This document shows, in pieces, positions 7,394 to 62,061 of a stretch of 64,000 nucleotides of DNA. Where the stretch lies: the NCBI GenBank assembly GCA_965219085.1, contig OZ244720.1, forward strand, positions 1,792,001 through 1,856,000. The letters are read 5' to 3'. The first letter of the stretch is position 1. Every line of letters starts with the position of its first letter. Made by a program: the position numbers and the translations under genes. The notes under the pieces were generated by a model. The model searched no databases, had not been told where the DNA came from, and worked only from the letters and a program-made list of their open reading frames with translations. Source of the stretch: Dehalococcoidia bacterium (GTDB lineage Bacteria; Chloroflexota; Dehalococcoidia; UBA2979).

Positions 7394-8050
7394 CAGGGTG
7401 CTGAAAAAGGCGCGGCCATCTGGCAGGATAGCGAAGGCGGCGGGGGCGTAGCCTGGGAGGCAGCCCCGTGCGAGGCGACGCTGAGCGTCAGACCAACATG
7501 TTGCTGGCGGTGACGCCGGACTCCTTCATCCCGGACGACCACCCGATCCGACGCATCAAGCCGATCGTCGATGCAGCGCTGCAGCGGCTCTCGCCGCTCT
7601 TCGGCACGATGTACGCAACGAGCGGGCGGCCCTCGATCCCGCCCGAGCACCTGCTCAAGGCGAGCCTGCTGATCGCGCTCTACTCGATCCGCAGCGAGCG
7701 CCAGTTCTGCGAGCGGCTGCGCTACGACCTGCTCTTCAAGTGGTTCTTGGACCTCAACATCTCAGACGCGCCGTTCGACGCCTCGAGCTTCTCGAAGAAC
7801 CGCGAGCGCCTGCTCGCAGCCGATGTCGCGCGCGCCTTCTTCGCCGAGGTGGTGGCCGAGGCAAAGCGCCGCCGGCTGCTCTCGGCCGAGCACTTCACGG
7901 TGGACGGGACGCTGCTCGAGGCGTGGGCGTCGCTCAAGAGATGGCATGAGGGCCGGTCTCTTCCTCAAGGGGGATACTCGCCCCCGAAACAGCGGCCTCG
8001 ATGGGCCAGAACGGCTCTTTGCGGAGCTTTGACGAGGTAGGAGACCGGCC

Positions 8051-9139
8051 GTGCAGCAGGATACCGCAACGACGTGGAGCATTGAGGGCAAGGAAGGGTC
8101 AGGGGTCACCATCGGCCTCGACGTGGGCGACCGCTACACCCACGTCCACGCCCTCGGCGCCGGCGGGGAGGTGGTACGTGAGAGGCGCGTCCGCACCACG
8201 ACGGCAGCGCTGGGCATGGTGCTGACCGGCCTCCCCCCATCGCGGGTCGTGATCGAGGCGGGGCCGCGCTCGCCGTGGCTGAGCCGCCTCATGGCGGACC
8301 TCGGCCACGAGGTGGTCGTCGCCAACCCGCGCCAGGTCGCGCTGATCGCCGGCAGCCAGCGCAAGACCGACCGGCTCGACGCCGAGTGGCTGGCGCGGCT
8401 GGGGCGCTTCGACCCCCAGTTGCTCGCCCCGATCCGCCACCGCAGCGAGGCGAGCCAGCACGACCTCGCCGTGGTGCGCGCCCGCGACGCGCTGGTGCGC
8501 TCGCGGACGCTGCTCATCAACCACGTGCGCGGGGCCGTCAAGGCCTGCGGAGCCGCGTTGCCGTCGTGCACGGCCGAGGCGTTCCACCGCAAGACGGCGG
8601 ACCACATCCCCGACGGGCTGCGCCCGGCGCTGCTGCCGCTGGTGGAGGCGATCGGCGAGCTGACCGCGCGCATCGCGGCGGCCGGCCGCGAGATCGAGGC
8701 GTTGTGCGAGGCTCACTCCGAGACCGCGGCGCTGCGCCAGGTCACGGGCGTCGGGCCGATCACCGCGCTCACGTTCGTGCTGACGATCGAGGATCCTGGG
8801 CGCTTCCCGAAGAACCGCGAGGTCGGCGCCTACCTCGGGCTCGTGCCGAGGCAGCGCGACTCGGGCGAGCGCACGCCGCAACTCGGCATCGGCAAGAGCG
8901 GCGATCCGCACCTGCGGCGGCTGCTGGTGCAGGCCGCGCACTACATCCTCGGCCCCTTCGGGCCCGACACCGACCTGCGCCGCTGGGGTGAGCGCTACAC
9001 CGCTACGGGGGCCGGTAACGCGAAGAAGCGCGCCGTCGTGGGCGTCGCGAGGCGGCTGGCGGTGCTGCTGCTCGCGCTGTGGAAGACCGGCGAGGTCTAC
9101 GAGCCGTTGCGCGACGCCGCGGCGCAGGAGGCCGCGTAG
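8051..9139 (+). CDS. IS110/IS1111-family DEDD recombinase (transposase)
   Basis: IGLDVG, VIEAG, KTDRLDA (DEDD), GVGPIT, AYLGLVP..RDSG. Confidence 0.93.
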   Translation: MQQDTATTWSIEGKEGSGVTIGLDVGDRYTHVHALGAGGEVVRERRVRTTTAALGMVLTGLPPSRVVIEAGPRSPWLSRLMADLGHEVVVANPRQVALIAGSQRKTDRLDAEWLARLGRFDPQLLAPIRHRSEASQHDLAVVRARDALVRSRTLLINHVRGAVKACGAALPSCTAEAFHRKTADHIPDGLRPALLPLVEAIGELTARIAAAGREIEALCEAHSETAALRQVTGVGPITALTFVLTIEDPGRFPKNREVGAYLGLVPRQRDSGERTPQLGIGKSGDPHLRRLLVQAAHYILGPFGPDTDLRRWGERYTATGAGNAKKRAVVGVARRLAVLLLALWKTGEVYEPLRDAAAQEAA

Positions 9140-9199
9140 CAAGGCGCGGCGCCGAAGCAACCGACCAGGAGAGCGAGACTGAGACGGACCTGGGAGGAG

Positions 9200-9400
9200 G
9201 CCCAGCAAACCAACCACTGCACGTGATGCCGGGCAACGGGCGACTGCGAGGCGGTAGCGGTCCAACAAGGACGTTCAAGAGTTGGCAGCGCCCCCTGGAA
9301 GCAGGATGTGCCTTCATGCACCGGGCCCGATACGTGGCCCATCAAAGAGTGCGGATAGAAGCTCGGCACAGGCTCCGTCAGGGGACATCACGAGCGGATC
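9200..9400 (+). ncRNA. Putative seekRNA/bridge RNA of the IS1111-type element (ends approximate)
   Basis: 9250-9258 GGCGGTAGC is the reverse complement of the right target flank; 9272-9281 CGTTCAAGAG matches the left flank CGCTCAAGAG; 9355-9361 ATAGAAG matches the element end. Confidence 0.72.
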
Positions 9401-9631
9401 GGCCCCGATGTCGAGGAGCGCCACGCCCCGAGGAGGAGGCCGCCACGTCGGCCTTGCAGAAAGACCGTCCCTCATAGAAGCTACCGCCCGCGCGACGAGC
9501 AGGAGCCACCCCTGGGCGGACGCAACCCGGATGTCGACTTCCGCGGGCGGCGGCGCAGCCGCGATACGCATAGTTCCGGCACGGACCCGGAGGCGCGGCT
9601 GTACACGAAGACACCCCAGGACGCTAAGGGG

Positions 9632-10855
9632 TCAAGCAGCGAGGTCCTCGTGGGTGTAACGGTGTCCCCAGGCGGTCGTCTCGTCGTAGGGCAAGCGGCG
9701 CTTCAGGCAGCCATGTAGGTAGCCGACGAGACGGTTGCCGAGGGCGCGGAGCGCCTGGTGGTGGAGGTCGCCCGCGGCGCGCCGCCGATCGTAGAACTCG
9801 CGGCAGCCGGGGCTGGCCTGCAGGGAGCACAGCGCCCACTGGTCGACTGCGTCGTAGAGGCGCCGGTTGCGGACGAAGCGGGCTTTCACGGTGTGCTTGC
9901 GGCCGGATGCTACCGTCAGCGGCGACGTGCCGGCGTAGTTCCTGCGGGACTTCGCCGACTCGTAGCGTTCGGGGTCATCCCCGAACTCGCCAAGCACCCG
10001 GGCGCCGAGGACCACGCCGAGACCGGGCAGGGAACGGTAGATACCGGCGTCCGGGTGCTGCTCAAAATGGCTCGCGAGCTCGGCCTCGAGCTCCTTGATC
10101 TGACGGTTGATCTCGCCGATCACCCTCATTGCCGCACTGGTGCTCGCGGCGAATGCCTTGCTCACCGCGGGCGGAGCCTCGAGCTGCGGTGAGCGCAGCG
10201 CGTCGCGGACCTCGGCGGCGCGCCGCTCGATGTTGCGCCGGCGGCCGCCGCGGCGCAGCGCGGAGCGGATCTGGGTGATGCTCAGCCGCGCCGCCTCGCG
10301 CGGGCCAGGCGCTGTCGCCAGCACGCCCACCGCGTCGTCGTGCGCGAGGTCGGGGAAGGCCTCCAGCGCACCCGGAAAGTACTCCCTGAGCGCGTTGCGC
10401 AGCCGGTTGGTCTGGCGGACGCGGTCCCAGATCAACTGCTGGTGGGCGCGGGCGAGGATGCGCACCGCGGCGGCTTCGTCGCTGTCGCCGGCGACCTCCC
10501 GGTGGTTGTGCCGGTCGGTGCGGACGAGGTCGGCGAGCAGCTTCGCGTCGCCGGCGTCGGACTTGGCGCCGCCGACGTGGTGGCGGTCGCGGTAACGCGA
10601 CGCCGAGCGCGGGTTGATGGCGTAGACGTGGTAGCCGGCCGCGAGCAGTGCCGCGACCCAGGGGCCGCGGTCCGTCTCGATGCCGACGATCACCTCACCC
10701 GGTCCTGAGGCGTACCCGGCGACCAGTCCGTGCAGGGCAGTGATGCCCTCCACCCCTTCGGGCAGACGCCGGGCGGCGAGCCGCTCGCCCGCGTCGTTCA
10801 TGAGATGGACGTCGTGGTGGTCTTCGGACCAGTCATCGCCCAGGTACAAGGCCAT
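9632..10855 (-). CDS. IS110-family DEDD recombinase (transposase)
   Basis: LGDDWS, GIETD, KSDAGDA, SLPGLG, YAGTSP..ASG motifs. Confidence 0.93.
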   Translation of the reverse strand: MALYLGDDWSEDHHDVHLMNDAGERLAARRLPEGVEGITALHGLVAGYASGPGEVIVGIETDRGPWVAALLAAGYHVYAINPRSASRYRDRHHVGGAKSDAGDAKLLADLVRTDRHNHREVAGDSDEAAAVRILARAHQQLIWDRVRQTNRLRNALREYFPGALEAFPDLAHDDAVGVLATAPGPREAARLSITQIRSALRRGGRRRNIERRAAEVRDALRSPQLEAPPAVSKAFAASTSAAMRVIGEINRQIKELEAELASHFEQHPDAGIYRSLPGLGVVLGARVLGEFGDDPERYESAKSRRNYAGTSPLTVASGRKHTVKARFVRNRRLYDAVDQWALCSLQASPGCREFYDRRRAAGDLHHQALRALGNRLVGYLHGCLKRRLPYDETTAWGHRYTHEDLAA

Positions 10856-10879
10856 CGTGTTTCAGTTCCTCTCCCGCTT

Positions 10880-11100
10880 CGCGCTGCTCGGTGCGACCCG
10901 GCGGGTTGGTTCCTGCGACGGCCTAATGGATCAGTGCTCGATGGCACGACACCCCATGAGTGCTGCAGAACAACCCGGAATACCAGCAGGGGCTCGGTCT
11001 TCGTGAAGCGGTCCAGAAGCCGCAGGGATCAGCTGAGAGCTCACCGGCTGGGCAGGGTCCAGAACCAGTCTGCCAGAGAACCTCTGGCCGCTGGTCGGGC
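10880..11100 (-). ncRNA. Putative bridge RNA (ends approximate)
   Basis: Minus strand in order: CTGATCCCT (11032-11024), hairpin, CACGAAG (11005-10999), TGGGGTGTC (10956-10948), hairpin, CCATTAG (10929-10923); these match target-left, target-right, donor-left and donor-right. Confidence 0.8.
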
Positions 11101-11541
11101 CCCATTAGGGGTCGGGGCAGACGGCGAAGCTCAGCTACATGGGCCATCTGCTCACCGAGAACCGTCACGGTCTGGTGCTGGACGTGGAGTTGACCGAGGC
11201 GAACGGGTACGCCGAGCGCGAGGCGGCGGTCACGATGCTGGAGCGCAGCGTGAGCGGCTGCGGGACGCTGGGCGCCGACCGCGGCTACGACACGCGCGGC
11301 TTCGTGGCGGCGCTGCGCGCTCGCGGCGTGACGCCGCACGTGGCGCAGCACGACCGCGGCCGCCGCAGCGCCGTGGATGGGCGCACCACGCGGCATCGCG
11401 GCTACAGGCAGAGTCAGAAGCGGCGCAAGATCGTGGAGCAGGTCTTCGGCTGGATGAAGACCGTGGGCGGCGGGCGCAAGCTGCGTTTCGTGGGCCGCGA
11501 GCGCAACCGCTGTTGGCTGGAGCTCACCGCCGCCGCCTACA

Positions 11542-13176
11542 CCCGAATCCACCGATCGAAGCTTGACGGGGCGGGATGCCGGGCTGCCGGAGAGTTCGGC
11601 GGGCGTGCCGGTGTTCGCGGGGCGGGCCGGAGCCAGGAGCGGTCGCTCAGCGCAGCTCGGGGGCGCTGAGGGCGCGGGCGCAAGGCGTGCGCGGGCATGC
11701 TGGCGCGAGCCTCGGAGGGGGGCCGGCGCTGTGAGCGGTCGTCAGGCCGGGAGCGGTAACGCCCGTAGTCGCGCGAGCGCGGCTGCCAGCTGCCCGGCCC
11801 AGGGCCAGCGCCTGGGGAGGTGCAGGGTCCAGCGCCGGGCCGAGTGGGTGAGCCGTCCGGCGAGGGCGAAATAGCGCCGCCTGAGCGTCCTGGTGGTGAC
11901 GATTCCCTCGCCGAGCCCGAGCCGCGCCGTCCAGCGGGCGAGGTGTGCGCGATCACCTGCACCGCGAGCCATGCCGCGTTCGCGGCGAAGCGGCCCGAGG
12001 GGAGATGGTTGAGCCCGACGCCGTACTTGAGGTCGCGGATCGCGTTCTCGATCTCGGCGTGACGGCGATGGTCGGTCTCGAGCTCCAGCAGCTCCCCCGC
12101 GCGGTCGCTGATGAAGGCGTGGTAGCTGTACGTCGCGAAGAGCGCGAGCTGTGAGCCGGGCGTCGGCTGGACGCGCCGCACGATGAGCCGCACCGGGGTG
12201 GCGTCCTTCGCGTGCCGGAACGGGGTGTAGGTCGTCTCGGCGACAGCGGCGCCGCCCGGCAGCCAGTACGGGATCGGCGTCCAGTCCGCTTCCGGGATCG
12301 CCTCGATCAGCGTGCGTACGTTCGGTTGCTGGCGAATCGTGACCGAGAAGCGGACATCCAGCGCGCGGCAGACGGCGACGACAGCGTGGTTGTAGAAGCC
12401 GCTGTCGGCGCGCACCGTGAGCTGCCCGCTCGCCCCGGCGTCGCGCACCCGCGCCACCGTCTCACGCAGGAAGTGGGCGGCGCCGCGGGCAGTGTTGGCG
12501 CGGCCCTCGCGCAGCCGCGCCATCAGCACGTCACCCGTCCCGGCCGCAACGGCGAGCAGCGGGTGGTAGCCGTGCACGCCCGTGTAGCCGTGGTGGCGGG
12601 CGCCCTCCTTGGCCAGGCCGTAGGTCTCACAGATCGTCGAGTCGAGGTCGATCGTGAACGGCGCCGCGCCGGGTCCCGCCCCGGCCGCCCATGCGCGGGC
12701 GAGCAATGCGCGGCTGAGGCGGTCGAGCTGGCGGACGTGGCCCCAGCGGAAGCTGCGCAGGAAGGTCCCGAGGGTGGACGGCGCCTTGACCGTGCAACCC
12801 AGCACGCTCGCCGTCCCGCCGGCGCGCAACGCATCGGCGTCGTCGATGCAGTCACCGCCCGCGAGCGCCGAGGCGATGAGGGTCAGCAGCTTGTCGCCGG
12901 CGTTCGCCCGGCCCGGCGCGTCACCGAGGTCGACGCAGCTGTCGGCGAGCTCTTGCAGACCGAGATGCTGGGCGAGCGTGGCCGGGAGCAGCAGGCCCGC
13001 GTGGTCCACGAGGCGGTCGTCATCGAAGGCGATGTCTATCCGGTCGGGGTCGCTCGTTGGTAGCATCGAATGGGTGCTCCCTGTGGCTGTGACGTGATTC
13101 GGCAAAACCCATTGTCCCAGCTACAGCGGAGCACCCAACCGCAGCCGCTCGCACGCCCTTCTTCGGTGGATCAAGG
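11542..13176 (-). mobile_element. IS1380-family insertion sequence
   Basis: IRs CCCGAATCCACCGA / TCGGTGGATCAAGG; 5-bp target duplication CTACA (11537-41, 13177-81). Confidence 0.92.
11742..13066 (-). pseudogene. IS1380 transposase with a frameshift near 11945
   Basis: IDLDST, GYHPL, VRADSGF, HRRHAEIENAIRDLK motifs; the C-terminus (LARW...TLRRRYFALAGRLTHSARR) continues in another frame. Confidence 0.85.
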
Positions 13177-13508
13177 CTACAACCTCGTGCGCATGGCCAC
13201 GCTCGAGACCGCCGCGGCGTAGGCGCAGTGCGCCCTCCGCCCCGCCAGGGAGCCCTCAGAGGCCCCCGGGGGCCGGTCAGGAGGCCACGATCACGAACCC
13301 GGAGGCGGCTTGAAGCCGCCTCTCGCCACTCCGAGACCCCGGAAGGCGCTTCTTCAGCACCCTGCTAGCTCCGCCTGGCACGCCCCGTGCCGCCGTCATG
13401 TGGGGGCTCGTCGTCCCCGTCGCCGAGGTCAGGCAACCTCGATCGACGGCGATGCCTCGCGGCACGAAGGTGCGGGGGATCCGTCGCTCGGCGGCGACCG
13501 GTGGCGCC

Positions 13509-13690
13509 TCAGCCCCGAGCTTTGCGGGAGCGCGCGCCGTACATGATGCTCCCGTAGTAGCTGAATGACCGCCGTGCCTCGGCGTCCGCGAACGGATAGT
13601 CCGCGCCGAGCTGCCTCGCGGCGGCGAGCCCACTCACGAGGCAGGTTTCCTGACTGCTGATCAGCGTATGCGCGCCGCAGTGGGAGGTCG
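13509..13690 (-). pseudogene. Probable C-terminal remnant of an FAD-dependent oxidoreductase
   Basis: CGAHTLISSQETCLVSGLAAARQLGADYPF looks like a flavoprotein C-terminus; no N-terminal part present. Confidence 0.35.
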
Positions 13691-13795
13691 GCGATGAGGC
13701 GATTGCCGCGAGCGCTCGCGCGAGGCGCTCCCAGCCGCGAAGATGAAGCGACCACCGCGTACAGCCATCGCCACCGGAAGACCTCGCACCCACGC

Positions 13796-15748
13796 ATGAT
13801 CACGATCAACGACGTCACGATGCGCTTCGGCGGACAGCTCCTCTACGAGGGCGTCAACTGGCAGCTCCGGCCCGGCGGCCACTACGGCCTCGTCGGGGCG
13901 AACGGCTCCGGCAAGTCCACGCTGATTCGGCTCATGACCGGCGAACTCACACCGGACGCGGGCGCCATCGTCCAGCCGGCCGCGCTCCGCCTCGGCACGC
14001 TCGGCCAGGACCAGTTCCGGTTCAACGAGATGCGGCTGATCGACGTCGTGCTCATGGGCCGCCCCCAACTCTGGACCGCCATCGAGGAGCGGACGCGGCT
14101 GCTTGGCGCGTCCACGGAGACCCGGCCCGCGGAGACACTGACCGCCGAGGCCGGTGAGCGCCTCGCCGACCTCGAGCTGACGATCGCCGAGTTGCACGGG
14201 TACGAGGCGGAACCGCAGGCGGCCGCGCTGCTCGTCGGCCTCGGCATTGAACACGCGCGCCACGAGCGGCCGATGCGCGAGCTGTCGGGCGGCTTCCGGC
14301 TGCGCGTGCTGCTGGCGCAGGTGCTCTTCGGACAGCCCGACGTGCTGCTGCTCGACGAGCCGACGAACCACCTCGACATCGCCTCGATCCAGTGGCTCGA
14401 GGGCTACCTGCGCGAGTTCGCGGGCGCCTTCGTGGTCGTCTCGCACGACCGCCACTTCCTCAACGCCGTGTGCGACACGATCGCAGACCTCGACTACTCC
14501 GAGCTGCGGCTCTACACCGGCGACTACGACGCGTTCGAGCGCGCCAAGCACCTCACCGTCACCCAGAAGGACGCCGAGATCGCGCGCGCCGAGGGACGCA
14601 TCGAGGAGATGCAGCAGTTCATCGACCGCTTCCGCGCGAAGGCCACCAAGGCTCGCCAGGCATCCGCCCGCAAGAAGCAGGTCGAGAAGATCGAGATGCC
14701 CGAGGTCCGCCGCAGCTCGCGGCGCGCGCCCGGCTTCGCGTTCGGCCAGCGGCGCCCCTCGGGCCGCACGCCGCTGCGCGTCGCGGGCCTGGCGAAGAGC
14801 TACAACGGGCAGGCCGTGCTCGACGATGTCTCGTTCGAGTTGGAGCGCGGCGACCGGCTCGCGGTCGTCGGGCCCAACGGCGTCGGCAAGTCGACGCTGC
14901 TCAGGGTGGTCAGCGGCATCATCGAGGCCGACGGCGGTACGTCTGAGTTCGGCTACGAGACGCACCTCGGCTACTTCGCGCAGGATGTCGGCGACGAGTT
15001 GCACGGCGAGCAGCCCGTCCTCGACTGGCTGGGCGGCGCCAGCGGCGAGGCCGACCTCGGCAAGCTGCGCGCGGCCCTCGGCCGCGTGCTCTTCAGCGGC
15101 GACGACGTGCACAAGCGGATCGGGAGCCTCAGCGGCGGGGAAGCCGCGCGGCTACTGCTGGCCGCGCTGATGCTGCGCCGGCCGAACCTGCTCGTCCTCG
15201 ACGAGCCCACCAACCACCTCGACCTCGAGGGCCGCGAGGCGCTGATGCACGCGCTCCGCGACTACCCGGGCACGCTCGTCTTCGTCAGCCACGACCGTCA
15301 CTTCGTCTCCAACGTCGGGACCCGTGTGCTGGTGCTGCGCCCCGATGGCTTCGAGGACGTGGCGGGCGCCTACGAGGAGTACCTCGAACGCCGCGGCGGC
15401 GACTTCCTGTCGACCAGCATCGCCGCGCCGCGGACCCGGCGGAGCGGGAACGGCGCAGGCAAACAGCACGGCAGGCACGCTCGGGCCGCGAGCAAGGAGC
15501 AGCGCCGGCGCCAGGCGCGGCTCGCTCGCCGCGTCGAGGAGCTGGAGCGCGAGATCGCCGAGGTCGAGGCGCAACTGGCCCCGATCGCCGCGCGCTTCGC
15601 CAACAACGACTACTACTCGCGCGTCTCGCTCGACGAGATCCGCGCCGACGAGGGCCGCCAGATCGAGTTGCAGACCCGCCTCGACGCCGCGATGCAGGCG
15701 TGGGAGGCCGCGGCACACCAACTCGAAGCCACCGAGGCGCCGGTCTAA
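13796..15748 (+). CDS. ABC-F family ATP-binding protein (ribosome-associated)
   Basis: Two NBDs (GANGSGKST/LSGG/LLDEPTNHLD; GPNGVGKST/LSGGE/LDEPTNHLD), no TM segments, C-terminal coiled coil. Confidence 0.93.
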   Translation: MITINDVTMRFGGQLLYEGVNWQLRPGGHYGLVGANGSGKSTLIRLMTGELTPDAGAIVQPAALRLGTLGQDQFRFNEMRLIDVVLMGRPQLWTAIEERTRLLGASTETRPAETLTAEAGERLADLELTIAELHGYEAEPQAAALLVGLGIEHARHERPMRELSGGFRLRVLLAQVLFGQPDVLLLDEPTNHLDIASIQWLEGYLREFAGAFVVVSHDRHFLNAVCDTIADLDYSELRLYTGDYDAFERAKHLTVTQKDAEIARAEGRIEEMQQFIDRFRAKATKARQASARKKQVEKIEMPEVRRSSRRAPGFAFGQRRPSGRTPLRVAGLAKSYNGQAVLDDVSFELERGDRLAVVGPNGVGKSTLLRVVSGIIEADGGTSEFGYETHLGYFAQDVGDELHGEQPVLDWLGGASGEADLGKLRAALGRVLFSGDDVHKRIGSLSGGEAARLLLAALMLRRPNLLVLDEPTNHLDLEGREALMHALRDYPGTLVFVSHDRHFVSNVGTRVLVLRPDGFEDVAGAYEEYLERRGGDFLSTSIAAPRTRRSGNGAGKQHGRHARAASKEQRRRQARLARRVEELEREIAEVEAQLAPIAARFANNDYYSRVSLDEIRADEGRQIELQTRLDAAMQAWEAAAHQLEATEAPV

Positions 15749-15780
15749 CGTCCGGGGCGCCAGCAGCTCGCCCACGCCGG

Positions 15781-16305: not shown

Positions 16306-16306
16306 C

Positions 16307-17539: not shown

Positions 17540-17691
17540 GTCGCGTCTCCTCGCGCCCGGACAGCGGCGCACCGTGCGCTGATACCAGGCTCAGCATGCA
17601 CCGTACGCGGTCGTCGCGCCGCTGGGCGAGGCCGCGCCGGCGCCGCGGCACACATCAGTGGGGCGAGGGGGAGTGTGGATCGCTGCACGCT

Positions 17692-18290: not shown

Positions 18291-18392
18291 CATTCCCTAC
18301 ATAATACGCCGCACCATCGCGCGGAACCGCGACGTGGACGCGCTGTCCCCGGAGCCGCAGTGAGGCGGGTCGAGGCGCCTGGGAATGGCGGC

Positions 18393-27674: not shown

Positions 27675-27675
27675 C

Positions 27676-49141: not shown

Positions 49142-49146
49142 CGCCG

Positions 49147-51833: not shown

Positions 51834-51862
51834 CCCGGCGGTGTCCCGCGACGCCGTGAACA

Positions 51863-51892
51863 TTGCCCACGGCGCAAGCGGGCTCGTATACT
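51863..51892 (+). promoter_or_regulatory. Putative sigma70 promoter of dnaN
   Basis: TTGCCC-18 bp-TATACT upstream of dnaN. Confidence 0.45.
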
Positions 51893-51951
51893 CGCGACGG
51901 TTGGGGGCTCAAAAGCGCAGCGCTTGAGCGATTTCTGCTTTGGGGGCCACC

Positions 51952-53082: not shown

Positions 53083-54607
53083 CAAAATCCTTTGCCTCCA
53101 CTCCCTCGATCATCGGCACCTCGACGCGTACATCGGCCTCATCAGGAGCGACGTTCACTCGCACCTCGAGGGCCTGAAGCAGCAGCGCCAACTCGTCCCC
53201 GTCTGCCTCCCTCACCCACTCGCGGATGAACTCAAGCGCTTCCGGCATGCGCTCCCGCAGCAACTCTGGATCGGGGCCGGGCTCGCATTCTGAGCGGAGC
53301 TGTGCCTGCTCGCGCTCCAGCGCAGCCCGACGCCTCGTCAGTCGCTCCTTCTTCTCCTGGAAGGCGTCCCTGGCGATCTCACCCTCCGTGTAGAGGTCGA
53401 CGAGCCGGTCTTCGCTCTCGTCGAGGTGGCTGAGCTCCCGTGTGAGCTCGGTCAGCCGGGCAGCGTGGTCCGTCCCGCCCCGCAGCCGCTCGGCCATGCC
53501 GATCGCGAGCTCCGGGTTCGCCAAGACGTCCCCGATCGTGTCGCGGACGGCCGACTCAAGGACTTCCTTCCGAACCAGGCGGCTCGCGCAGCGCTTGTCC
53601 TCGCGGGAGAGGTACAGACGGTTGCAGCGATAGTAGAGGTAGCGCCCGCGGTTGACGGACTGCCCGACCATGCCCGCACCGCAATCCCGGCAGCGGAGCC
53701 GCCCGCTCAAGGGGTACGTGCGCGACGGAGCCCGCGCGTTGCGACGCTCGGGGTCTTCGAAGCGGGCCTGAGCGCTGGCGTACAACTCGGGGGAAACGAT
53801 CTGCGGCGACGCCCCATCGATCACGATGTGTTCGCTCGGATCCTGCTCGACCACGCGCCGCTTCCGACTACGGCCACCGGATTGTCGGATCATCTCAGCC
53901 TTGGTGCGCCGGTAGACGGTGCGGCCGGTGTAGGTCTCGTTGCGCAGGATCCGGTGGACCGTCACCGGGTACCACTGCTTGCCGGTTAACGTCGGGATGC
54001 CGTCGGCGTTGAGCTCGGTCGCGATGCGGTTAACGGCCTTGCCCGAGGCGAACCCCTCGAAGATGCGCCCAACGACGGGCGACTGCTGGGGATTCAGCAC
54101 GCGCTGTCCTGTCTCGCGGACGTAGATGTACCCGTAGCACCCCGCGCCGGTGCCCTGAGCGAGCTGGCCATTGCGGGCGCGCTCGGCCTTGCCGCGCATC
54201 GTGCGCTCGGCGATCTTCTCGCGCTCGACCTCGGCAATGAGCGCACGCGCGGCCACGATGAACTTCCCGATCGCGGTGTCCTCGAAGTCCTCGGTCGCGA
54301 AATCGAGGCGCACGCCGCTGGTCTCGGCCTCGTCGAAGAGCACGCCGATGTGATTCTGACTCCTCGATACGCGGTCGAGCGCGAAGGCGAGCAGCACGTC
54401 GCACTCGCCGTCGCGCATCATGCGACGCACTTCGGCCATCCCCGGCCGCTCGAGCGACGACCCGCTCGCAGTGTCGCGGATCGTGCGGATGACCGTGTAG
54501 CCGGCCGCTCCCGCGTACTCCAGGCTGGCGCGCTCCTGCGTGTCGAGTGAGGTGCCCTCATCCGCTTGCGCGTCGGTCGACACCCTCGAGTAGACAATCG
54601 TTCGCAT
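53057..54607 (-). CDS. Large serine recombinase (integrase)
   Basis: YSRVST catalytic Ser, DRVSR, recombinase domain, Zn ribbon CRDC...YYRC...C, coiled coil. Confidence 0.93.
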   Translation of the reverse strand: MRTIVYSRVSTDAQADEGTSLDTQERASLEYAGAAGYTVIRTIRDTASGSSLERPGMAEVRRMMRDGECDVLLAFALDRVSRSQNHIGVLFDEAETSGVRLDFATEDFEDTAIGKFIVAARALIAEVEREKIAERTMRGKAERARNGQLAQGTGAGCYGYIYVRETGQRVLNPQQSPVVGRIFEGFASGKAVNRIATELNADGIPTLTGKQWYPVTVHRILRNETYTGRTVYRRTKAEMIRQSGGRSRKRRVVEQDPSEHIVIDGASPQIVSPELYASAQARFEDPERRNARAPSRTYPLSGRLRCRDCGAGMVGQSVNRGRYLYYRCNRLYLSREDKRCASRLVRKEVLESAVRDTIGDVLANPELAIGMAERLRGGTDHAARLTELTRELSHLDESEDRLVDLYTEGEIARDAFQEKKERLTRRRAALEREQAQLRSECEPGPDPELLRERMPEALEFIREWVREADGDELALLLQALEVRVNVAPDEADVRVEVPMIEGVEAKDFATIERTSA

Positions 54608-54610
54608 GTT

Positions 54611-54856
54611 CTACCCCCGTTGCATTCTACCGCGTGAGACGCCCTGCACTGCGGTCTTCGTCGTTGTCTCGACTTCGTCTTCCCGCGTCGCGCCAGCAGC
54701 TGCTGCGTGCGCGATCGTCAACTCAGTGAGGATCCGGCCCCAGAGGTCATTCCATGCCTTCACAGGCTCGTCTCCATACACGTCGACCTCGAGCCGCGCG
54801 CGAACTTTGCGCGACCCTCCCGTCTGCTTTGTGTCGCTCCTGCTGTCTCCACTCAT
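54611..54856 (-). CDS. Small hypothetical protein directly upstream of the recombinase
   Basis: 81 aa, stop 3 bp before the recombinase ATG, GGAG-like RBS. Confidence 0.6.
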   Translation of the reverse strand: MSGDSRSDTKQTGGSRKVRARLEVDVYGDEPVKAWNDLWGRILTELTIAHAAAAGATREDEVETTTKTAVQGVSRGRMQRG

Positions 54857-55308
54857 CCCACTCCACCCGGCGACTTGGCCGCGACTGAGACATGCTCATC
54901 ACGGCGGCTTGTTGCTCGCCGCCGTTGGGTTCGCGCCGGCGGCGGGCGCAAGGCCCCCCGAAGGGGGCCGGGCACGGCCAAGCCGCACGCCCGACGTGGG
55001 AGAGGCCACCCGGGAGCGGTCAGTCGCGAGAGCGGAGCAGGATGGGCGGTGTGGAGCGGGCTTGGTCGGTCTGAGGGCTCGGACTGCGAGGTGGAGCGTC
55101 AGGCCTCAGGGACAACGGACTGGAGATCCCGCCTCACCGGGGATCCCGAACACTGGCTGGATAAGGGGAGGAAGAATCGCAATCGTTGGGGAAGTTCAGG
55201 AGGAAGGTGGTCTGGGGGAGGTGGTCGATTTCAGTACCGTCAGTGGGTGGGACACATTGGCGCGCACGCGCCGGACGGAGCCAGCGTTGCCGTCACCCCC
55301 CACGCACG

Positions 55309-55330
55309 AAAAACCCGCCTCGCGGCAGGT
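55309..55330 (-). terminator. Putative intrinsic terminator
   Basis: Minus-strand hairpin ACCTGCC-GCGA-GGCGGGT followed by a T-run, downstream of the 55362 ORF. Confidence 0.55.
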
Positions 55331-55361
55331 CTCCGTACGGCAGGACGCAGGGCAGGGAGCG

Positions 55362-55691
55362 TTACGGGGTGACTGTCCCGTCGATGACCGGTTGCCCGAC
55401 CTCGACGATCCGTACAGCCGTGCCGGCCGACAAGTCGACCAGCTTCCCGTACAGCAGCCACTGGCCGGCGCCCAGAATGGCGAACCCGGCCAGCACGACG
55501 CTCAGGACCGCACCTGCGGCCCAGCGCATCTCCCCGCGAAGCGTGGCAACGTCACTCCGTAGTGACGCCAGCTCCGCCTGAATGACGGCGAGGTTGGCGG
55601 TCGCAGCGGCTTGCACTGTTTCCACCTCCCTCTGCGCAACTGAGACCGCTTCAACACGGTCCTCCAGTCGCTCCATCCTGGCTAACACCAT
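55362..55691 (-). CDS. Small coiled-coil protein with a C-terminal TM helix
   Basis: RBS AAGGAG; heptad pattern, then WAAGAVLSVVLAGFAILG. Confidence 0.65.
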   Translation of the reverse strand: MVLARMERLEDRVEAVSVAQREVETVQAAATANLAVIQAELASLRSDVATLRGEMRWAAGAVLSVVLAGFAILGAGQWLLYGKLVDLSAGTAVRIVEVGQPVIDGTVTP

Positions 55692-55881
55692 AGCGGACTC
55701 CTTCGAGCCCTGCACCGCCAGACCCTCTGGCGGTGACGACGCCTGGCCGAGCCCCGCGAAGGGCCATGGCCGCGCGTCGTCGAGGTGTCGCACTGGTGAG
55801 TGTTGCTAGCTGCCGTGACCGCAGCCGGCCTCGCCACCGCCCGCTCATGGCGGCGATGGCGACGAGCAAGGGCAGCGTCTT

Positions 55882-56444
55882 CTAGGCCACGGGCGCTTGC
55901 CCGAACGGCGATGCGACTCGGGCGCGCTCGTCCCGCGACAGCGCCATGTACCTGTGTATGCGAGCGCCGTGCTGACGCGCGATCTCCACGCTCTGCTCGT
56001 CATGGTCGCGCGTATGCGGGCCATCGAGCCAAGCGACCACCGACTCCGCGACGCCACGCGTGAGCCCCGCCGCGCCGTCCGTTTGGAACAGCGGCTGCCA
56101 GGGGTAGAAATCGTCCTCGTCGTCGACGACGGCGTAACGACTCAGCCCCGGGTTCCGATGGAGCCACAACGCGACTTCGTCGCCGCGGAGCGCCTCGGCG
56201 GGCAGCGTGTCGGTGCACGCGTGTATCACCACGCGGCCGCTCACTCCCGCAGCAGGTCGGCGTACTTGCGCCACGAGCTCGCGAGCACGGTGTAGACCGG
56301 GACGACCGACGCCACGATGAAATCGAAGTTCGCCGCAAGCGATTCTTCAATCGAACCCATCGCCGCATCTCGACGGTGCCGGTTCAGCACCCCGTCCACG
56401 TCCAGGAACACACCATGTCGTCCCCGCGTTGTCTGTCCATCCAT
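55882..56444 (-). pseudogene. HAD phosphatase of the Swiss-army-knife RNA-repair type (HAD_SAK_2-like), frameshifted near 56243
   Basis: FLDVDGVLN...SSWR in one frame; RGDEV..WL...YAVVDD...TD...GLT in the next. Confidence 0.72.
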
Positions 56445-56981
56445 GAGCCTCTCCTCGTGTACGGCCCGCCGAATGGCGTGGTGCTCGCTAGCTGTTGTGA
56501 ATGCAGCCGACCTCGCGGTCGCTCGCCGCCTCGGTCATGGCGACGAGCTCATCGCGATGCTGCCCGTCGCCGGTCCACGCCGGGGCGAACCCCTCCGCCA
56601 CCATCACGGCGTCGATGGAGACTCCCTCCAGCGTGTAGACGTAGCGCAGCGTGCGGCCGTGCTTGTCCGCCTCCCGCGGGCCAGGCTCGACCAGGACCGC
56701 CTCACCGACGAGCTCGCGCAGCCGGTTGGTGGCCTCCATGTAGCAGGCTTCGCCGCGCTCACGTGTGTCGATACCGTAGAAGCGGATGCGGCGACCGTCG
56801 GCGATGTCGAAGGTGTCGCCGTCAACGACCGCGACGACCTCGACGCGTTCGGTTGGCTCCCGTGGCGTGACGGCCGAGACGTCGGCCAGTCGCGTTGTCG
56901 CTGTGACCCGACCCCTTGAAACGGGACCACCGTTGATGAGAGTCCTCTGGCCCATGAAAGTGGGTGGAGGAGGACATCACG

Positions 56982-57260
56982 GTGAAACGACGCAGGCACA
57001 CGCCCGAGCAGATCGTGCGGAAGCTGCGGGAGGTGGAGCGGCTGCTCGGTGAGGGGCAGACGATCGCCGAGGCGGCGAAGCAGGTCGAGATCTCGGAGCA
57101 GACCTACCACCGCTGGCGCAACCAGTACGGCGGGATGAAGGCCGACGACGCCAAACGGCTGCGCGAGCTGGAGCGCGAGAACGCCCGGCTGAAGCGGATC
57201 GTCGCCGACAAGGAACTCGAGATCGACGCGCTCAAGGAGATCGCCCGGGGAAACTGGTAA
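56982..57260 (+). CDS. IS3 transposase OrfA
   Basis: HTPEQIVRKL, TYHRWR..YGGM, LERENARLK; GGGAAAC slippery site at the end. Confidence 0.9.
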   Translation: MKRRRHTPEQIVRKLREVERLLGEGQTIAEAAKQVEISEQTYHRWRNQYGGMKADDAKRLRELERENARLKRIVADKELEIDALKEIARGNW

Positions 57261-58113
57261 GCCCGTCGCGCCGGCGCGAGGCAGTCTGCATGTTGCAGGA
57301 CCGCCTCGAGTTGTCGGAACGGCGGGCATGCCGGGTCACCGGCCAGCACCGCTCCACACAGCGCCGCCTCCCGACGCGCGGCCGCGGCGACGACGCGCTG
57401 CGCGCGGAACTCCACGCCTTCTCGCGTGGCCACCCCCGCTGGGGGTACCGCCGGGTCTGGGCGACCTTACGCGAGGAGGGCTGGGGCGTGAATCGCAAGC
57501 GGGTGCAACGGCTCTGGCGTGAGGAAGGGCTGCGCGTCCCGGTGAAACGGCGCAAGCGTCAGCGCCTGGGGGACTCGGCGGTGCCCGCCGCCAGGCTGCG
57601 CGCTGAGCGGCCGAACCACGTCTGGGCGCTGGACTTCCTGTTCGACCAGACCGCGGACGGGCGGGTCCTGAAGCTGCTCAACATCGTCGACGAGCACACA
57701 CGGGAGGCGCTGGCGATCGTGGCCGCAGGAGCATCAACGCCGACGCCACGGCCTCAACGCTCGAGGGGATCGTCGCCCGGCGCGGGACGGCGCCTGGGTA
57801 CATCCGCTGCGACAACGGTCCAGAGCTCACGGCCAACGCGCTGCGCGACTGGTGCCGGTTCTCCGGCACGGGCAGCAGCTACATCGAGCCCGGTGCGCCG
57901 TGGGAGAACCCGTACGTGGAGTCGTTCAACGGCCGGCTGCGCGACGAGTTCCTGGCCGTCGAGCAGTTCGACAGCCTGCTCGAGGCGCAGGTGCTGCTTG
58001 AGGACTGGCGGATCGAGTACAACACGAAGCGCCCGCATAGCAGCCTGGGCTGGCTCGCCCCGGCTGCCTACGCCGAGCGCTGGGAGGCTCAGCAGCACGC
58101 TGGACTCTCATAA
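57257..58113 (+). pseudogene. IS3 transposase OrfB with an extra frameshift near 57727
   Basis: WGYRR, WALDF, IVDEHTRE; then CDNGPE, PWENPYVESFNG, YN..RPHSSLG in another frame. Confidence 0.85.
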
Positions 58114-58510
58114 GCGGTGGTCTCGCGAAGGGGGTCCGGTCAGCTGCACCGGCGCCCTCGGGGGTGGCGTTCTGCGCGTCGCCGGCCATGTCCAGCAACG
58201 TCTCGCCCCCGGAGTACATGAGCATGGTGAAGAAGCTCCCCACCACAATGCCGACCAGCGCCCGGATGATGAACCGTATGAGCTGTGTGTCTTTCTGGTG
58301 CTGAGCACCGAAAACGCCGGCAGCGCCGGCGTGAGTGAGTTGGTTGCCGATACCGAGGCCCCTATTGGGCGGCGACGACGCGCCCGCGACGAGCACAGCA
58401 AGAAGCCCTCCTGTTGAAGGAGGGCGTCTGCTGTGCCGAGTGCGCTTGCGAGGCAGCGCCGCCTGTTCACGGCAGTCCAGGGTCGCCGGAATTACGACGC
58501 CCCGGCGAGT

Positions 58511-58599
58511 CGCTGGGTTGATGAGGATTCGCGGCATCGGACTGCGGGCATCGAAAAACCCGCCGGATGGCGGGCTGTCGATGTGCGCAGGAGAGCGAT
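58511..58599. repeat. 89-bp direct repeat, copy 1 (contains a minus-strand terminator hairpin at 58559-58574)
   Basis: Aligns without gaps to 59126-59214. Confidence 0.9.
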
Positions 58600-58995
58600 C
58601 TAGCGATCGCGGAGGGCCTCGGCTAGCGAATCCCCGATCTCGATGGTGACTGCGCCGTCGCCACCGAGTACAACCGCGAGTGTGACAGCGATTGCAGCCA
58701 CTGCAATGACCAGGCCAAGCAGATTCAGGCTCGTCTTCAGCGAGTCCATCCTGCCGTCGAGCGAACCGATCTTGGTGTTGAGGTCGGAGCGGACCGAGTC
58801 GATCTTGGTGTCGAGCGAGTCCATCTTGGATTCGAGCGACGACAAGGCGGACGCGATCGTCTTCGCCGTCGCTTCCATGTTGTTCTCGACTGCTTCCATC
58901 TTCGTGTCCTGCGCAGCCAGTCGCGTGTCGGACGCGGCTATGGCCACACTTACTGCTGCGCGATCCTCAGCAGCTGGGTTCTCTACCGATGCCAC
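58600..58995 (-). CDS. Coiled-coil protein with Bdr/KID-like repeats and a C-terminal TM helix
   Basis: SKMDSLDTKIDSVRSDLNTKI repeats, then LLGLVIAVAAIAVTLAVVL; RBS AAGGGG. Confidence 0.65.
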   Translation of the reverse strand: MASVENPAAEDRAAVSVAIAASDTRLAAQDTKMEAVENNMEATAKTIASALSSLESKMDSLDTKIDSVRSDLNTKIGSLDGRMDSLKTSLNLLGLVIAVAAIAVTLAVVLGGDGAVTIEIGDSLAEALRDR

Positions 58996-59125
58996 CTGTT
59001 TCCCCCTTGGAGTGTACATCCGCCGCCGGAGCCGTGCGCTCTGGCGCGCTCGTCCGTTGCCGAGTCGTGGTGACTCGGCAACGGACGAGCGAAGCGGCGG
59101 CAGGTGATGCCGCCACTTCGGTCGC

Positions 59126-59214
59126 CGCTGGGTTGATGAGGACTCGCGGCATCGGGTCGCGGGCATCAAAAAACCCGCCATCCGGCGGGTTGTCGATGTG
59201 CGCTGGAGAACGAT
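59126..59214. repeat. 89-bp direct repeat, copy 2 (terminator hairpin at 59174-59189)
   Basis: Aligns without gaps to 58511-58599. Confidence 0.9.
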
Positions 59215-59542
59215 TCGCCGAGTAGGCCCGGTCAGCCGCTAGATGTACTGACCACACAGGTGTGAGACACGGCCGACGGGCGGGAGGCCGCCGAGCGAGC
59301 CGTGGGGACGGTGCCTGTTGTACCACCTGAGCCACCCTGCGAGGGCTCTCGCGCGGTTCGCACTGGACGGGTAGGCGAAGGCGTATGCCCAGCTCCGCAG
59401 CAGCATCTGGATGAAGCGCTCCGCCTTGCCGTTGGTGCGCGGCGTGTAGGGCCGCGTCCGCAGGTGGCGCAGCCCCAGCTCGTCGCAGCGAGCCCGCCAG
59501 GCGTGCGATGCGTACGCGGGCCCGTTGAGTTCCTAACGGATG

Positions 59543-60943
59543 TCAAGCTCCGGCGAGGGGTTGTAGCGTAGGCAGCGGACGGGCCGGCGCCGGAGCGCTC
59601 TGCGACTCCTGACCGCGGCGGCCCGTCCCCTTGCGCGAGCCCGCGCGGGGGCCGAGTCGCTGGCGGCGCACCTCGGCTGGGACGCTGTAGCGCTCGGCGA
59701 CGATGCTCCGCCCCTCGGCCACGGAGACGGGCTGGCCGTCGCAGTCGCGGATGACGTAGCGCTCGCCGCGCCGCCAGCAGGCGACGACGCGCGTGAGCAG
59801 CGTGGTGGCGATATGGCAGAGCGCCGAGTTGTGGTGCTTGCCGGCGGCGACCATGAGCCGCTGGTAACGGGCGGCGAGCGTGGGGTCGATGCGCCGCGCA
59901 TGGTCGGCGGCGATGAAGATCGCCTCGCGCAGGGCGGCGTCGCCGCGGCGGGTCGGACGGCCGTGGCGGCCGCTCACGCCGGAGGCGTTGAGCGAGGGCA
60001 CGAGCCCGCTGAAGGAGCGCACCCCGGCGAGGGAGCGGAAGCGGTTGGGATCGCCGAGGCGGGCGAGGATCTGGGGACCGGTGACGGGACCGATGCCCGG
60101 CGCCGAGGTGAGGATCGCCTCGGGGTCGGCCTCCTCGAAGAGGAGCGCGATGCGCTCGTCGAGCGCGGCGACCTCGTCTGTGAGGATGAGGGCGAGCCTG
60201 GCCTCGACGGCGATGTCCTCGGCGAGCTGGTCGAAGTCGAAGGCGTCCTCCCAGAGCGCGAGCGTCTCCTCCGCGGCGTCCAGCAGCGCCGCAGCGTGCT
60301 CCGGGCCCCAATGGCCGCGCGAGTGGCGATACAGGAAGCGCCCGAGGCGCGCCCGGCCGAGCCGTTCCACCGTGTCGGGACAGGCGTAGCCGGCTGCAAG
60401 GAACCGCAGCGGGGTCTTGTTGGCGAGGTCGGCGCGGAAGGCCTCCAGCCACTTCGGCCCGAGCAGCTCCAGCAGCGCGTCGAGCCGCGCCAGCGACTTC
60501 GTGCGCCGCTGCACCAGGCTCTGACGCAGCCGCGTCGCGCGCCGCAGCGGGTCGCCCGGCCCGAGGCCGTGCTCGTCGTGCAGCCCCTCGGGGTGCAGCA
60601 GCGGGAGCCGCGCCAGCAGACGCGAGTCGAGCCGGTCGCTCTTGGTGTGCTTATGGTAGTAGTCGCGCAGGTCCGCCGAGCGCTCCGGCGGCACCAGCAC
60701 GACGCGTGCGCCGCGACGGCGGAACCAGGCGGCGAGCGCCACCCAGGCGTTGCGCGTGGGCTCCAGGATCACCAGCACCTCGGTGTCTGTTCCTCGCTCG
60801 GGCAGCATCGCCCACAGCCGCTCGAGGTCTTCGGCCCCGGTGCGGAAGCGGTGTCCGCTCCAGAGGAAGCGCCCGCTCTCGTCGGCGAGGCTCGCCTGGT
60901 GGGCGGCCCGGGACGCGACGTCGATTCCCAACCACAGCTGCAT
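59543..60943 (-). CDS. IS110-family DEDD recombinase (transposase)
   Basis: LGIDVA, ILEPT, KSDRLDS, SAPGIG, FSGLVP..NASG. Confidence 0.93.
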   Translation of the reverse strand: MQLWLGIDVASRAAHQASLADESGRFLWSGHRFRTGAEDLERLWAMLPERGTDTEVLVILEPTRNAWVALAAWFRRRGARVVLVPPERSADLRDYYHKHTKSDRLDSRLLARLPLLHPEGLHDEHGLGPGDPLRRATRLRQSLVQRRTKSLARLDALLELLGPKWLEAFRADLANKTPLRFLAAGYACPDTVERLGRARLGRFLYRHSRGHWGPEHAAALLDAAEETLALWEDAFDFDQLAEDIAVEARLALILTDEVAALDERIALLFEEADPEAILTSAPGIGPVTGPQILARLGDPNRFRSLAGVRSFSGLVPSLNASGVSGRHGRPTRRGDAALREAIFIAADHARRIDPTLAARYQRLMVAAGKHHNSALCHIATTLLTRVVACWRRGERYVIRDCDGQPVSVAEGRSIVAERYSVPAEVRRQRLGPRAGSRKGTGRRGQESQSAPAPARPLPTLQPLAGA

Positions 60944-60969
60944 ACAGTCGCTCCGTTCCTGCACCCCCG

Positions 60970-61225
60970 CGCTCACTCGGTCCGCGCTGGCCACCGGAGA
61001 GGGACGTCGTACCGGACATTCGCTAACAGGGATCCGGGCGCCACCGCCCGGTCACCGGGTTCCCAACAGGACGCTTCGTCCCCGGCGGTGGCCCCGCCCG
61101 CCTCGTGGTCAACAGGCCAGGAGTCGCGTTGCGCTCCGATCGGTCAATCAACGACGGCGGACAGGCGCCGGACCCTCTGATCCTGAGGCCGGCCGGCCGG
61201 TCCGGCCAGCATCCGGAGGGCAGAT
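60970..61225 (-). ncRNA. Putative bridge RNA (ends approximate)
   Basis: Minus strand in order: TGACCGATC (61146-38), hairpin, GGCCTGTTG (61118-10), TTGGGAACCC (about 61066-57), GAATG (61021-17); partial matches to target and donor junctions. Confidence 0.62.
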
Positions 61226-62061
61226 CCAGATTGAATGTCCGTCATCACCGCTTCGACCGTGATGCCCTGTTCAGCGAACCAGTCGAGCGTCCGCTCGAGG
61301 AACGCGAGGGCATCGTGGCGGCGGTCCGTGGGGAGCACCTCGGCGTAGGCCAGCCGCGAGTGGTCGTCGACGGCGACGTGCACGTGCTGCCAGCCCGCGC
61401 GCGGGCTGCGCGTGACCCCGTCGCCCAGGATGCGCTTACCGACGTGCCAGAAGCGCCCCAGCTTCTTGGTGTCTATGTGCAGCAGCTCCCCCGGGCGCTC
61501 GCGCTCGTAGCGCACCACCGGGGGTCGCGGCTCGCGCGGCAGCCGCGCGGCCCAGCCGCCGCAGCACCTTGCCCACGGTCGAGGCGGGGCGGCCGAGCAT
61601 CGCGCCCAGGGTGAGCGGGCCGGCCCCGCTGCGCTCGCGCGCGGCCACGATCTCGGCCTCCTCGGCCGGGGAGAGGCGGCGCGGCTGGTGCTTCGGGGTG
61701 GAGGGACGCTCGCGCAGTCCCGCCCAGCCGCCGGCCCGGTAGCGCGCGAGCCAACGGTAGCCCGTGGCACGGCTCGCGCCGACGCTGGCGGCGGCCTTGG
61801 CGGGGCTCATGCCCGCGAGCATCGCGGAGATGGCGCGGCAGCGCGCCTCGAACGAATAGAGCATCCGCTCGGGCCTGTTGGTGGCATCATGCATCGGGAC
61901 CTCCTTCGGAACCTGGGTCGTGTTCAACCCCAAGTCTCGTCGGAGGCCCCTTTGCGATCAGGTGTCTCGCAGGTGTGTAGTCAGTACAGCTAGAGGCTTC
62001 GTGCCCCCAACGGTAGTACGCGAGTCCCGCGAGGATCGTCACCTTGCCGATAGCGAGGTCT

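Follow-up and report, generated by a model that had tools for sequence, protein, structure and literature searches.

IS110-family elements of a Dehalococcoidia genome lie in the transposase genes of other insertion sequences at sites matching their own candidate guide RNAs

The stretch analyzed here (hereafter the window) comprises 64,000 nt from the genome of a Dehalococcoidia bacterium (GCA_965219085.1, contig OZ244720.1; here G000, one contig of 3.3 Mb), corresponds to G000:C1:1792001-1856000, and has a G+C content of ~67–77% across its length. It holds three insertion sequences (IS) of the IS110 family, which we term elements A, B, and C, each lying within the transposase gene of another IS. 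A profile search for PF01548, the IS110 DEDD domain, gave 27 matches in the genome, which fall into six clusters, and three in the window (8111-8542 (+), 10373-10840 (-), and 60458-60931 (-)). The recombinases of A, B, and C share a pairwise identity of ~28% and, like those of two further elements in the genome (D and E), display both PF01548 and PF02371 above the curated Pfam cut-offs. An earlier reading of the window (the sequence-only reading) had described three divergent IS110 elements with cores AG, CT, and CA, each in a transposase open reading frame (ORF), and this is borne out by the junctions and by the Pfam domains of the hosts; the span 7939-61237 under which they were grouped merely encloses three separate elements and is not a single feature. 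Junctions were determined by reading the sequence and comparing occupied with empty copies, and a 2-nt core was noted at both junctions of each element: AG in A, CT in B, and CA in C.

Element A (7939-9478 (+)) is of the IS1111 type, with its AG core at 7939-7940 repeated at 9479-9480 and its boundaries set by the comparison of occupied and empty IS5 copies. The junctions read CTCAAG-AG-ATGGCATG ... CATAGA-AG-CTACCGC and split an IS5 gene at WASLK|SY; insertion is scarless, the empty A site in an intact IS5 consisting of the left flank, AG, and the right flank. The recombinase gene (8051-9139 (+), 362 aa; PF01548, 1e-18; PF02371, 3.8e-20) is accompanied by a 3′ non-coding region of 339 nt, and a left sub-terminal inverted repeat, GAGGGCCGGTCT (7948-7959 (+)), has its partner AGACCGTCCCTC at 9462-9473, with 11 of 12 bases complementary. 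Flank matches place a candidate target-guide module in the 3′ non-coding region (9250-9281 (+)), comprising a right target guide (RTG), GGCGGTAGC, at 9250-9258, a small hairpin (GTCC..GGAC), and a left target guide (LTG), GTTCAAGAG, at 9273-9281, so that RTG GGCGGUAGC precedes LTG GUUCAAGAG. The 12-bp sub-terminal repeats, downstream non-coding region, and reversed order of the target segments agree with the hallmarks of the IS1111 group as given in the available part of PMC11187229, namely sub-terminal inverted repeats of 11–13 bp, a downstream non-coding region, and reversed guide order. By the rule stated in PMC11208160 (available part), the LTG corresponds to the sense of the left target plus core, and the RTG to the reverse complement of the core plus right target. 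Each real target was scored against 2000 sites drawn at random from the genome and sharing its core, and that of A was equalled or beaten by 1 of the 2000.

The IS5-family host of A (7391-13372 (+); ends and copies determined by BLAST, ~14 copies in the genome) has its transposase gene interrupted by A, by B, and by a further element, X. An intact copy displays DUF772 and DDE_Tnp_1 domains in Pfam, and its homologs are annotated as IS5 family transposase in their source records. Element B (9611-11108 (-)), of the IS110 type, has the core CT (AG on the forward strand, at 11107-11108 and 9609-9610) and lies in the same IS5 copy as A, at LYTK|GSG, with the reverse-strand junctions CCGACCC-CT-AATGGGG ... 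GGGGTGT-CT-TCGTGTA. Its recombinase gene (9632-10855 (-), 407 aa; PF01548, 2.7e-37; PF02371, 4.1e-11) has ~250 nt of non-coding sequence upstream and 20 nt downstream. The candidate bridge-RNA guide region (10923-11032 (-)) contains LTG CUGAUCCCU (11032-11024), RTG CACGAAG (11005-10999), a left donor guide (LDG), UGGGGUGUC (10956-10948), and its right counterpart (RDG), CCAUUAG (10929-10923), in the canonical order LTG-RTG-LDG-RDG. The LTG pairs with CCGACCCCT with two U:G wobbles, the RTG with CTTCGTG, and the LDG and RDG with the donor ends; the target was equalled or beaten by 5 of the 2000 random sites and the donor by 21.

Element C (59528-61237 (-)), also of the IS110 type and present as a single copy, has the core CA (TG on the forward strand, at 61236-61237 and 59526-59527) and splits an IS481 gene at MTD|NG, with the reverse-strand junctions GACGGA-CA-TTCAAT ... 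GGAACT-CA-ACGGGC. The host, an IS481-family element (59244-61988 (-)) with terminal repeats read from its ends, displays HTH, LZ_Tnp_IS481, rve, and rve_3 domains in Pfam and has no second copy by BLAST; the TDNG at the C site is what we take to be the second catalytic Asp motif of retroviral-type integrases. The recombinase gene (59543-60943 (-), 466 aa; PF01548, 4.4e-21; PF02371, 1.4e-20) has ~290 nt of non-coding sequence upstream and 15 nt downstream, and the candidate bridge-RNA guide region (61016-61146 (-)) contains LTG UGACCGAUC (61146-61138), RTG GGCCUGUUG (61118-61110), LDG UUGGGAAC (61066-61059), and RDG GAAUG (61020-61016). The LDG is good and the RDG spans only 5 nt; a blind scan in the manner of IS621 did not find a donor guide for C (1081/2000). 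We also noted that the IS481 gene hosting C (61201-61957 (-)) is out of frame between its HTH and catalytic parts, and was either already broken or frameshift-dependent, independently of C.

B and C share the long 5′ non-coding end of the IS110 group, and no sub-terminal repeats were noticed on reading their ends, no formal repeat search having been made. The LTGs of B and C show four differences from their targets, every one at the third position of a codon (B: GGA/GGG, TCA/TCG; C: ACC/ACG, GAT/GAC), and three of the four are U:G wobbles, the ACC/ACG difference in C being a true C:C mismatch, which upholds what the sequence-only reading had said of wobbles and third positions. It had also stated that the guides are complementary to transposase coding sequence (CDS) and not to host genes, as is the case for the window elements. 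Two stretches were searched against Rfam 15, and neither bridge-RNA nor seekRNA families were matched. A single Rfam hit exceeded its threshold, Ms_AS-4 (63.9 bits, above the gathering score; window 9950-10031 (+)); it lies antisense inside the B recombinase gene and so is uninformative as to a guide RNA, and this family may simply be antisense IS110 transposase sequence. Single-sequence minimum-free-energy folds of the three non-coding ends proved uninformative in GC-rich RNA, and a consensus fold was used instead.

We consider it likely, at a probability of roughly 80%, that A, B, and C home under the direction of their guides (bridge RNA or seekRNA) into multicopy mobile-element DNA, which serves as a safe harbour. 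Under this proposal, all three would be intact IS110-family elements in which the element's own non-coding RNA, presumably expressed as a bridge RNA from the 5′ end in B and C and as a seekRNA from the 3′ end in A, picks the site by base pairing. In this lineage, drift or reprogramming would have brought the target guides to match sequences within other mobile elements, and such multicopy targets, harmless to the host, would provide many safe landing pads. As a side effect, the transposase gene of the host element would be inactivated, in line with the disabling of host transposases proposed earlier and with the ORFs split by the insertions. The composite could then be carried along whenever the host element is mobilized in trans.

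The same sites are occupied repeatedly across the genome. Five copies of A (sub-lineage A1) are at least 99.8% identical, and all lie in IS5; together with one hybrid, they occupy one identical site in 6 of 14 IS5 copies. The A-occupied IS5 copies are 90–100% alike and retain their own single-nucleotide polymorphisms (SNPs) 10–20 nt from the junction, and A is found at one and the same base although the left segments of these copies differ, being 93%, 97%, and ~100% like that of the window copy. Given that A lies at the same base in IS5 copies of differing left segments, with their own SNPs near the junction, these represent independent insertion events. The six copies of B are at least 99.87% identical, and five of the six are in IS5, across at least three IS5 lineages. 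The sixth, at 166284, is in unique DNA, where the right half-site TCGTG alone matches the RTG; this fits, by analogy, the half-match off-target insertion reported for IS621 (bioRxiv 10.64898/2026.08.31.748434, available part). No exact empty B target is left in the genome, the other IS5 copies differing at three site positions. Assembled Logan contigs of public runs show that other samples contain IS5 forms lacking A and forms lacking B, including one form with a near-exact empty B site in which the core differs.

Alternatively, a single ancestral insertion of A and of B may have been spread by gene conversion or homologous recombination between IS5 copies, or by transposition of a loaded IS5. 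Three IS5::A::B composites are nearly identical, with an IS5 middle segment that is 100% alike yet unlike other copies, and their different outside flanks indicate that at least these were copied as a unit; the mosaic A-family copy at 340394 further indicates that copies do recombine. Such copying is at odds, however, with the presence of A in IS5 copies whose left segments are only 93–97% alike and whose lineage-specific SNPs approach to 10–20 nt of the junction, with B in three IS5 lineages, and with the B copy at 166284, where unique DNA offers a half-site fitting the RTG; nor does it account for the relatives of C in unrelated transposases. Gene conversion or the copying of loaded IS5 explains part of the copy number, and we regard it as very unlikely to be the general explanation. 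The different flanks of the three composites also fit hitchhiking, as the sequence-only reading had supposed in suggesting that these elements ride on other IS, and such movement may have occurred.

Homing by guide predicts that guides and targets change together, and covariation across homologs, which the sequence-only reading had put forward as a check, was seen in the A, B, and C families. The eleven A-family copies in the genome form sub-lineages 86–100% alike, whose guide segments differ, each fitting its own flanks. A1 targets the IS5 CDS, A2 the CDS of the IS1380-type element X (at GRLTH|SARRW, on the antisense strand), and A4 an IS3-type orfB at KRPH|SSL, while A3 is located 76 bp beyond an IS256-type ORF. 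The A4 RTG predicts the right half-site CAGCCTG, the true right flank being masked by tandem copies of the A4 right end. The covariation set comprised 17 distinct combinations of the 21 found, sister-genome loci included; the LTG showed at least 8 of 9 matches to its own flank in 8 of 17 cases and to other flanks in 5 of 248 cross-pairings, with RTG matches in 6 of 16 and 2 of 236, respectively.

In the B family, we compared 13 sister-genome loci with an intact left end of 15 aligned, two with a different 5′ part being set aside. None of the 13 is in IS5. The RTG column holds GGGAGAG at 12 of the 13 loci, and 9 of these 12 have the flank CT|CTCCC beside GGGAGAGGG-type palindromes; the remaining locus, L040, has AAUGAAG with CT|TCATGG. 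Among the B-family loci compared, the RTG CACGAAG is confined to the window lineage, where it is paired with the CT|TCGTG of IS5. A consensus fold from 11 of the B-family sequences has two domains, each with an internal loop around a hairpin, and 50 pairs, 8 of them compensatory; this two-domain fold, the four ordered guides, and the covariation together identify the B non-coding end as a bridge-RNA candidate.

For C, a 90% ortholog from a congeneric genome, L070 (the same place as L075), occupies another rve-type gene, split at ETVMTD|NGSEF, and carries guides altered to fit, with LTG UGACCGACC against TGACCGAC and RTG CCAUUG against CAATGG, and we accept the C target guides, and with them a bridge RNA in C, since both change together with the target in L070. 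Four C-lineage elements (the window C, L070, L076, and L087) have a right flank, NG..., in frame with an rve_3 ORF. L076 is 88% identical to C, and its IS481 is 85% like that of the window; L087 is 59% identical to C and comes from a genome recorded as another phylum. The proteins hosting L070 and L087 are otherwise unlike the window IS481. Other C homologs (47–60% identity) lie elsewhere, with Actinoplanes loci at GGGGTACGA-CA in host DNA and three Acidimicrobiales loci with flanks that are not NG, so targeting of TD|NG is not universal in the C clade. Taken over the three families, the earlier observation that each non-coding end matches both flanks of its own site is supported by the flank matches, the random-site test, and the covariation, with C confirmed through L070. 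Separately, a segment of the C non-coding end (61011-61022 (-)), GCGAAUGUCCGG, has a core, GAAUGUCCG, complementary to 9 nt of the C left junction CGGACATTC (left target, core, and left end); the segment is kept in L070 and might bear on excision.

A tally of the 27 IS110-family copies, compiled from the flank, copy, and domain analyses and consisting of copies that are not independent, places 22 inside other mobile elements. Sixteen are in transposase CDS (five A1, the hybrid at 340394, three A2, A4, five B, and C), and six are in other parts of mobile elements: A3 close to an IS256-type end, E_756 and E_3084 occupying both termini of a second IS5-family element, E_1081 within X, and two copies of D. 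Three are in unique DNA (B at 166284, E_751, and E_3172), and the remaining two are truncated or without clear placement. In all, more than 10 target classes were found, including the CDS of four transposase families, a shared catalytic motif, and the guide regions of other IS110 elements. The collection of flanks, another check named by the sequence-only reading, agreed with it in that 16 of 27 copies are in transposase CDS with the same sites reused, and departed from it in that sister-genome relatives are often elsewhere.

Such a tally could also reflect survival bias only, with insertion nearly anywhere and persistence only in dispensable IS DNA. Repeated DNA makes up ~20% of the genome (651,889 bp in 339 merged intervals), making chance nesting not rare, and one B copy (166284) and two E copies are indeed in unique DNA. 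Against this, the junctions agree to the base among IS5 copies of otherwise differing sequence, guides and sites are complementary and covary, and the relatives of C share its codon boundary across different genes and genomes. Eight empty A targets were found in IS5 (seven exact, one with one mismatch), where the 16-mer has no further close match, and all seven exact ones in the genome are in IS5. Guide complementarity and covariation exclude survival bias in its pure form, and we consider it extremely improbable.

The elements of this group are also found within one another. D (IS110-type, core CG) lies within the 3′ non-coding region of E (IS1111-type) at L032:2101-3606 (G000 1083100-1084605) and at G000 3174362-3175867, E itself being in or next to other IS; the 5′ end of D holds a candidate LTG, RTG, LDG, and RDG in canonical order, fitting the site in E. 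In the sister genome G012, an A-family element (L104) has entered a B-family bridge-RNA gene in the region of the donor-binding loop, just 5′ of the donor guide UGGGGUGUC, and the RTG of this A-family element matches that guide sequence. A palindromic repeat, GTCACTTCCTTCATGGAAGGACAGATTCG, is an A-family target in one sister genome and a B-family target in another, at adjacent positions (L094 and L040). At L031 (G000 894621-895938 and 893433-894622), an IS5 terminus abuts a truncated B-like element 83% identical to B, and the nesting seems to run the opposite way; the region, a dense IS graveyard, also has an A-family copy and an IS256-type gene.

These arrangements raise the question of a selected anti-transposon role, in which knockout of DDE transposases and guide regions limits IS expansion to the benefit of the host or of the element community. 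At least one IS110-family insertion is present in the transposase gene of 8 of 14 IS5 copies, A and C are aimed at the most conserved portions of the genes they target, D lies in the 3′ region of E that bears the guides, and a relative of A lies in a bridge-RNA gene of the B family. In an alignment of the IS5 transposase with the best-scoring 120 homologs listed (72–93% identical), the A site (SLK|SYR, block FTVDGTLLEAWASLKSYRPRD, also written DGTLLEAWASLKSY) is within the 6% most conserved 6-residue windows, and the TD|NG of C recurs in dissimilar rve transposases of three other genomes, so the earlier claim that conserved codons are hit stands for both. Nevertheless, six IS5 copies are without A or B, eight A-target sites are empty, the genome is still ~20% repeats, loaded IS5 copies seem to have kept moving, and relatives target neutral REP-like (repetitive extragenic palindromic) repeats and, in some cases, host genes. 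From these sequences, a function against transposons maintained by selection is possible but unsupported, and we think it improbable. A broader version, for which we hold out somewhat more, though still slender, hope, is a layered hyperparasite community whose guides are kept on conserved DDE transposase codons and on each other's guide-RNA genes, perhaps shared in trans, with the net effect of an RNA-programmed, heritable brake on transposon expansion. If this were true, one guide could hit diverged transposon families across genomes, as with the TD|NG of rve enzymes or the DGTLLEAWASLKSY block.

Returning to guide-directed homing into a safe harbour, several results weigh against it. The IS621 model yielded no donor guide for A (1025 of 2000 random sites scored as well or better), and eight exact or near-exact A targets are still empty. 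The B site (YTK|GAG) ranks with the most variable IS5 transposase windows, at the 97th percentile, and here the conserved-codon claim fails. The C target was equalled or beaten by 96 of the 2000 random sites, weak evidence alone, and its LTG has one mismatch and one wobble in 9. Three of the 17 distinct A-family loci (G_340, L093, and L111) are at sites unmatched by their own guides, and the three IS5::A::B composites are probably one event copied twice. No circle junction, and no direct sign of activity, was found among the joints listed from assembled contigs of the public runs. Finally, relatives target non-transposon DNA, which makes transposase targeting one outcome of guide reprogramming and not a fixed trait.

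The range of targets among the relatives of A illustrates the last point. Some in sister genomes are at REP-like palindromes; in G013, four loci lie upstream of the rve domain of another transposase with a common right flank, one of the four having a left flank that fits its LTG; in G075, three loci lie upstream of a reverse-transcriptase ORF, this region probably being a group II intron; L102 is inserted in a host surface-protein gene; and L093 and L111 are at IS5 terminal repeats, which their guides do not match. Loci mismatched in this way would be explained either by a sibling guide acting in trans or by recombination between copies that swaps the guide region. The dedicated aim at transposases that the sequence-only reading had proposed is therefore not upheld, given that relatives occupy REP-like palindromes, the region of a group II intron, a gene of the host, the ends of IS, and the guide region of an IS110 element. 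The IS110 family is described as preferring repeated sequences (PMC11208160, available part), and transposase targeting is therefore one outcome of this known preference and not a dedicated program. On the best reading, the preference here goes beyond REP sequences and terminal repeats and reaches the interior of transposase genes.

Further features of the window and of the A family were noted. Element X (11542-13176 (-); PF13701), in the 3′ end of the IS5 copy, holds an empty target of the A2 sub-lineage at 11842|11843. The full A4-target 16-mer has 10 exact occurrences in the genome, in IS3-type copies, and one of these, unoccupied, is in the window, CCCGCAT-AG-CAGCCTG (K R P H | S S L; 58032-58047 (+)), with its right half predicted from the A4 RTG; the ORF displays an HTH_21 domain and a weak rve match below the Pfam cut-off. 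The hybrid copy (L036; G000 340394-341911) occupies the A1 site of a diverged IS5 and carries A2-type guides, being a mosaic of sub-lineages. Two A copies have an identical 926-bp insert inside the right sub-terminal repeat (L033:3038-3963 and L034:2410-3335; G000 1859038-1859963 and 1972909-1973834) and sit in two different IS5 lineages; A and the insert seem to have travelled together, as one composite, to the IS5 site that A usually occupies. In several A-family copies, the right end is followed by tandem partial repeats of the element's own 3′ non-coding end, in units of ~120–260 bp, which hide the true right target (L030:2970-3639, G000 2850069-2850738, with copies at G000 1259819 and 891783). 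One-sided reactions and tandem duplication at IS110 ends are treated in a 2026 preprint (10.64898/2026.08.14.744561, available part). One public RNA run yielded small pieces only, which are no proof of transcription.

Among known systems, IS621, ISPpu9/ISPpu10, and other REP-targeting elements of the IS110 group resemble B and C in their two-domain DEDD recombinase, long 5′ non-coding end, 2-nt core, LTG-RTG-LDG-RDG order, and two loop domains, and resemble the sister-genome relatives of B, which are also on REP-like palindromes. Their targets are extragenic palindromes, whereas those in the window are the CDS of unrelated DDE transposases, and C and three relatives match catalytic-motif codons in different genes. 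IS4321/IS5075 and IS1383 are reportedly members of the IS110 family that target other mobile elements at their ends, much as element E lies at the termini of the second IS5-family element; A, B, and C, by contrast, insert within the transposase gene and disrupt it, and here one family is found on at least four IS families within one genome. The IS1111-attC group, which is said to target integron attC sites, is alike in its sequence-specific use of a repeated site of another mobile genetic system and differs in that its target is a recombination site and not a protein-coding catalytic motif. A literature search whose scope lay outside the supplementary target lists of PMC11208160 and PMC11187229 found no report of IS110 guides on transposase CDS or catalytic motifs, nor of IS110 elements as hyperparasites. 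It likewise found no report of spread within a genome onto several IS families or of IS110 elements aimed at each other's guide regions.

Bridge RNA and seekRNA recombinases are under development as programmable genome writers, and little is published on how their guides evolve in nature. The genome studied here and its sister genomes constitute a natural series of re-aimed guides in elements 85–90% alike, which makes testable the reprogramming of guides, the tolerance of wobble at synonymous sites, the use of a sibling guide in trans, and conflict between transposons. For annotation, transposase genes that look 'broken' in genomes rich in IS may in many cases be occupied targets.

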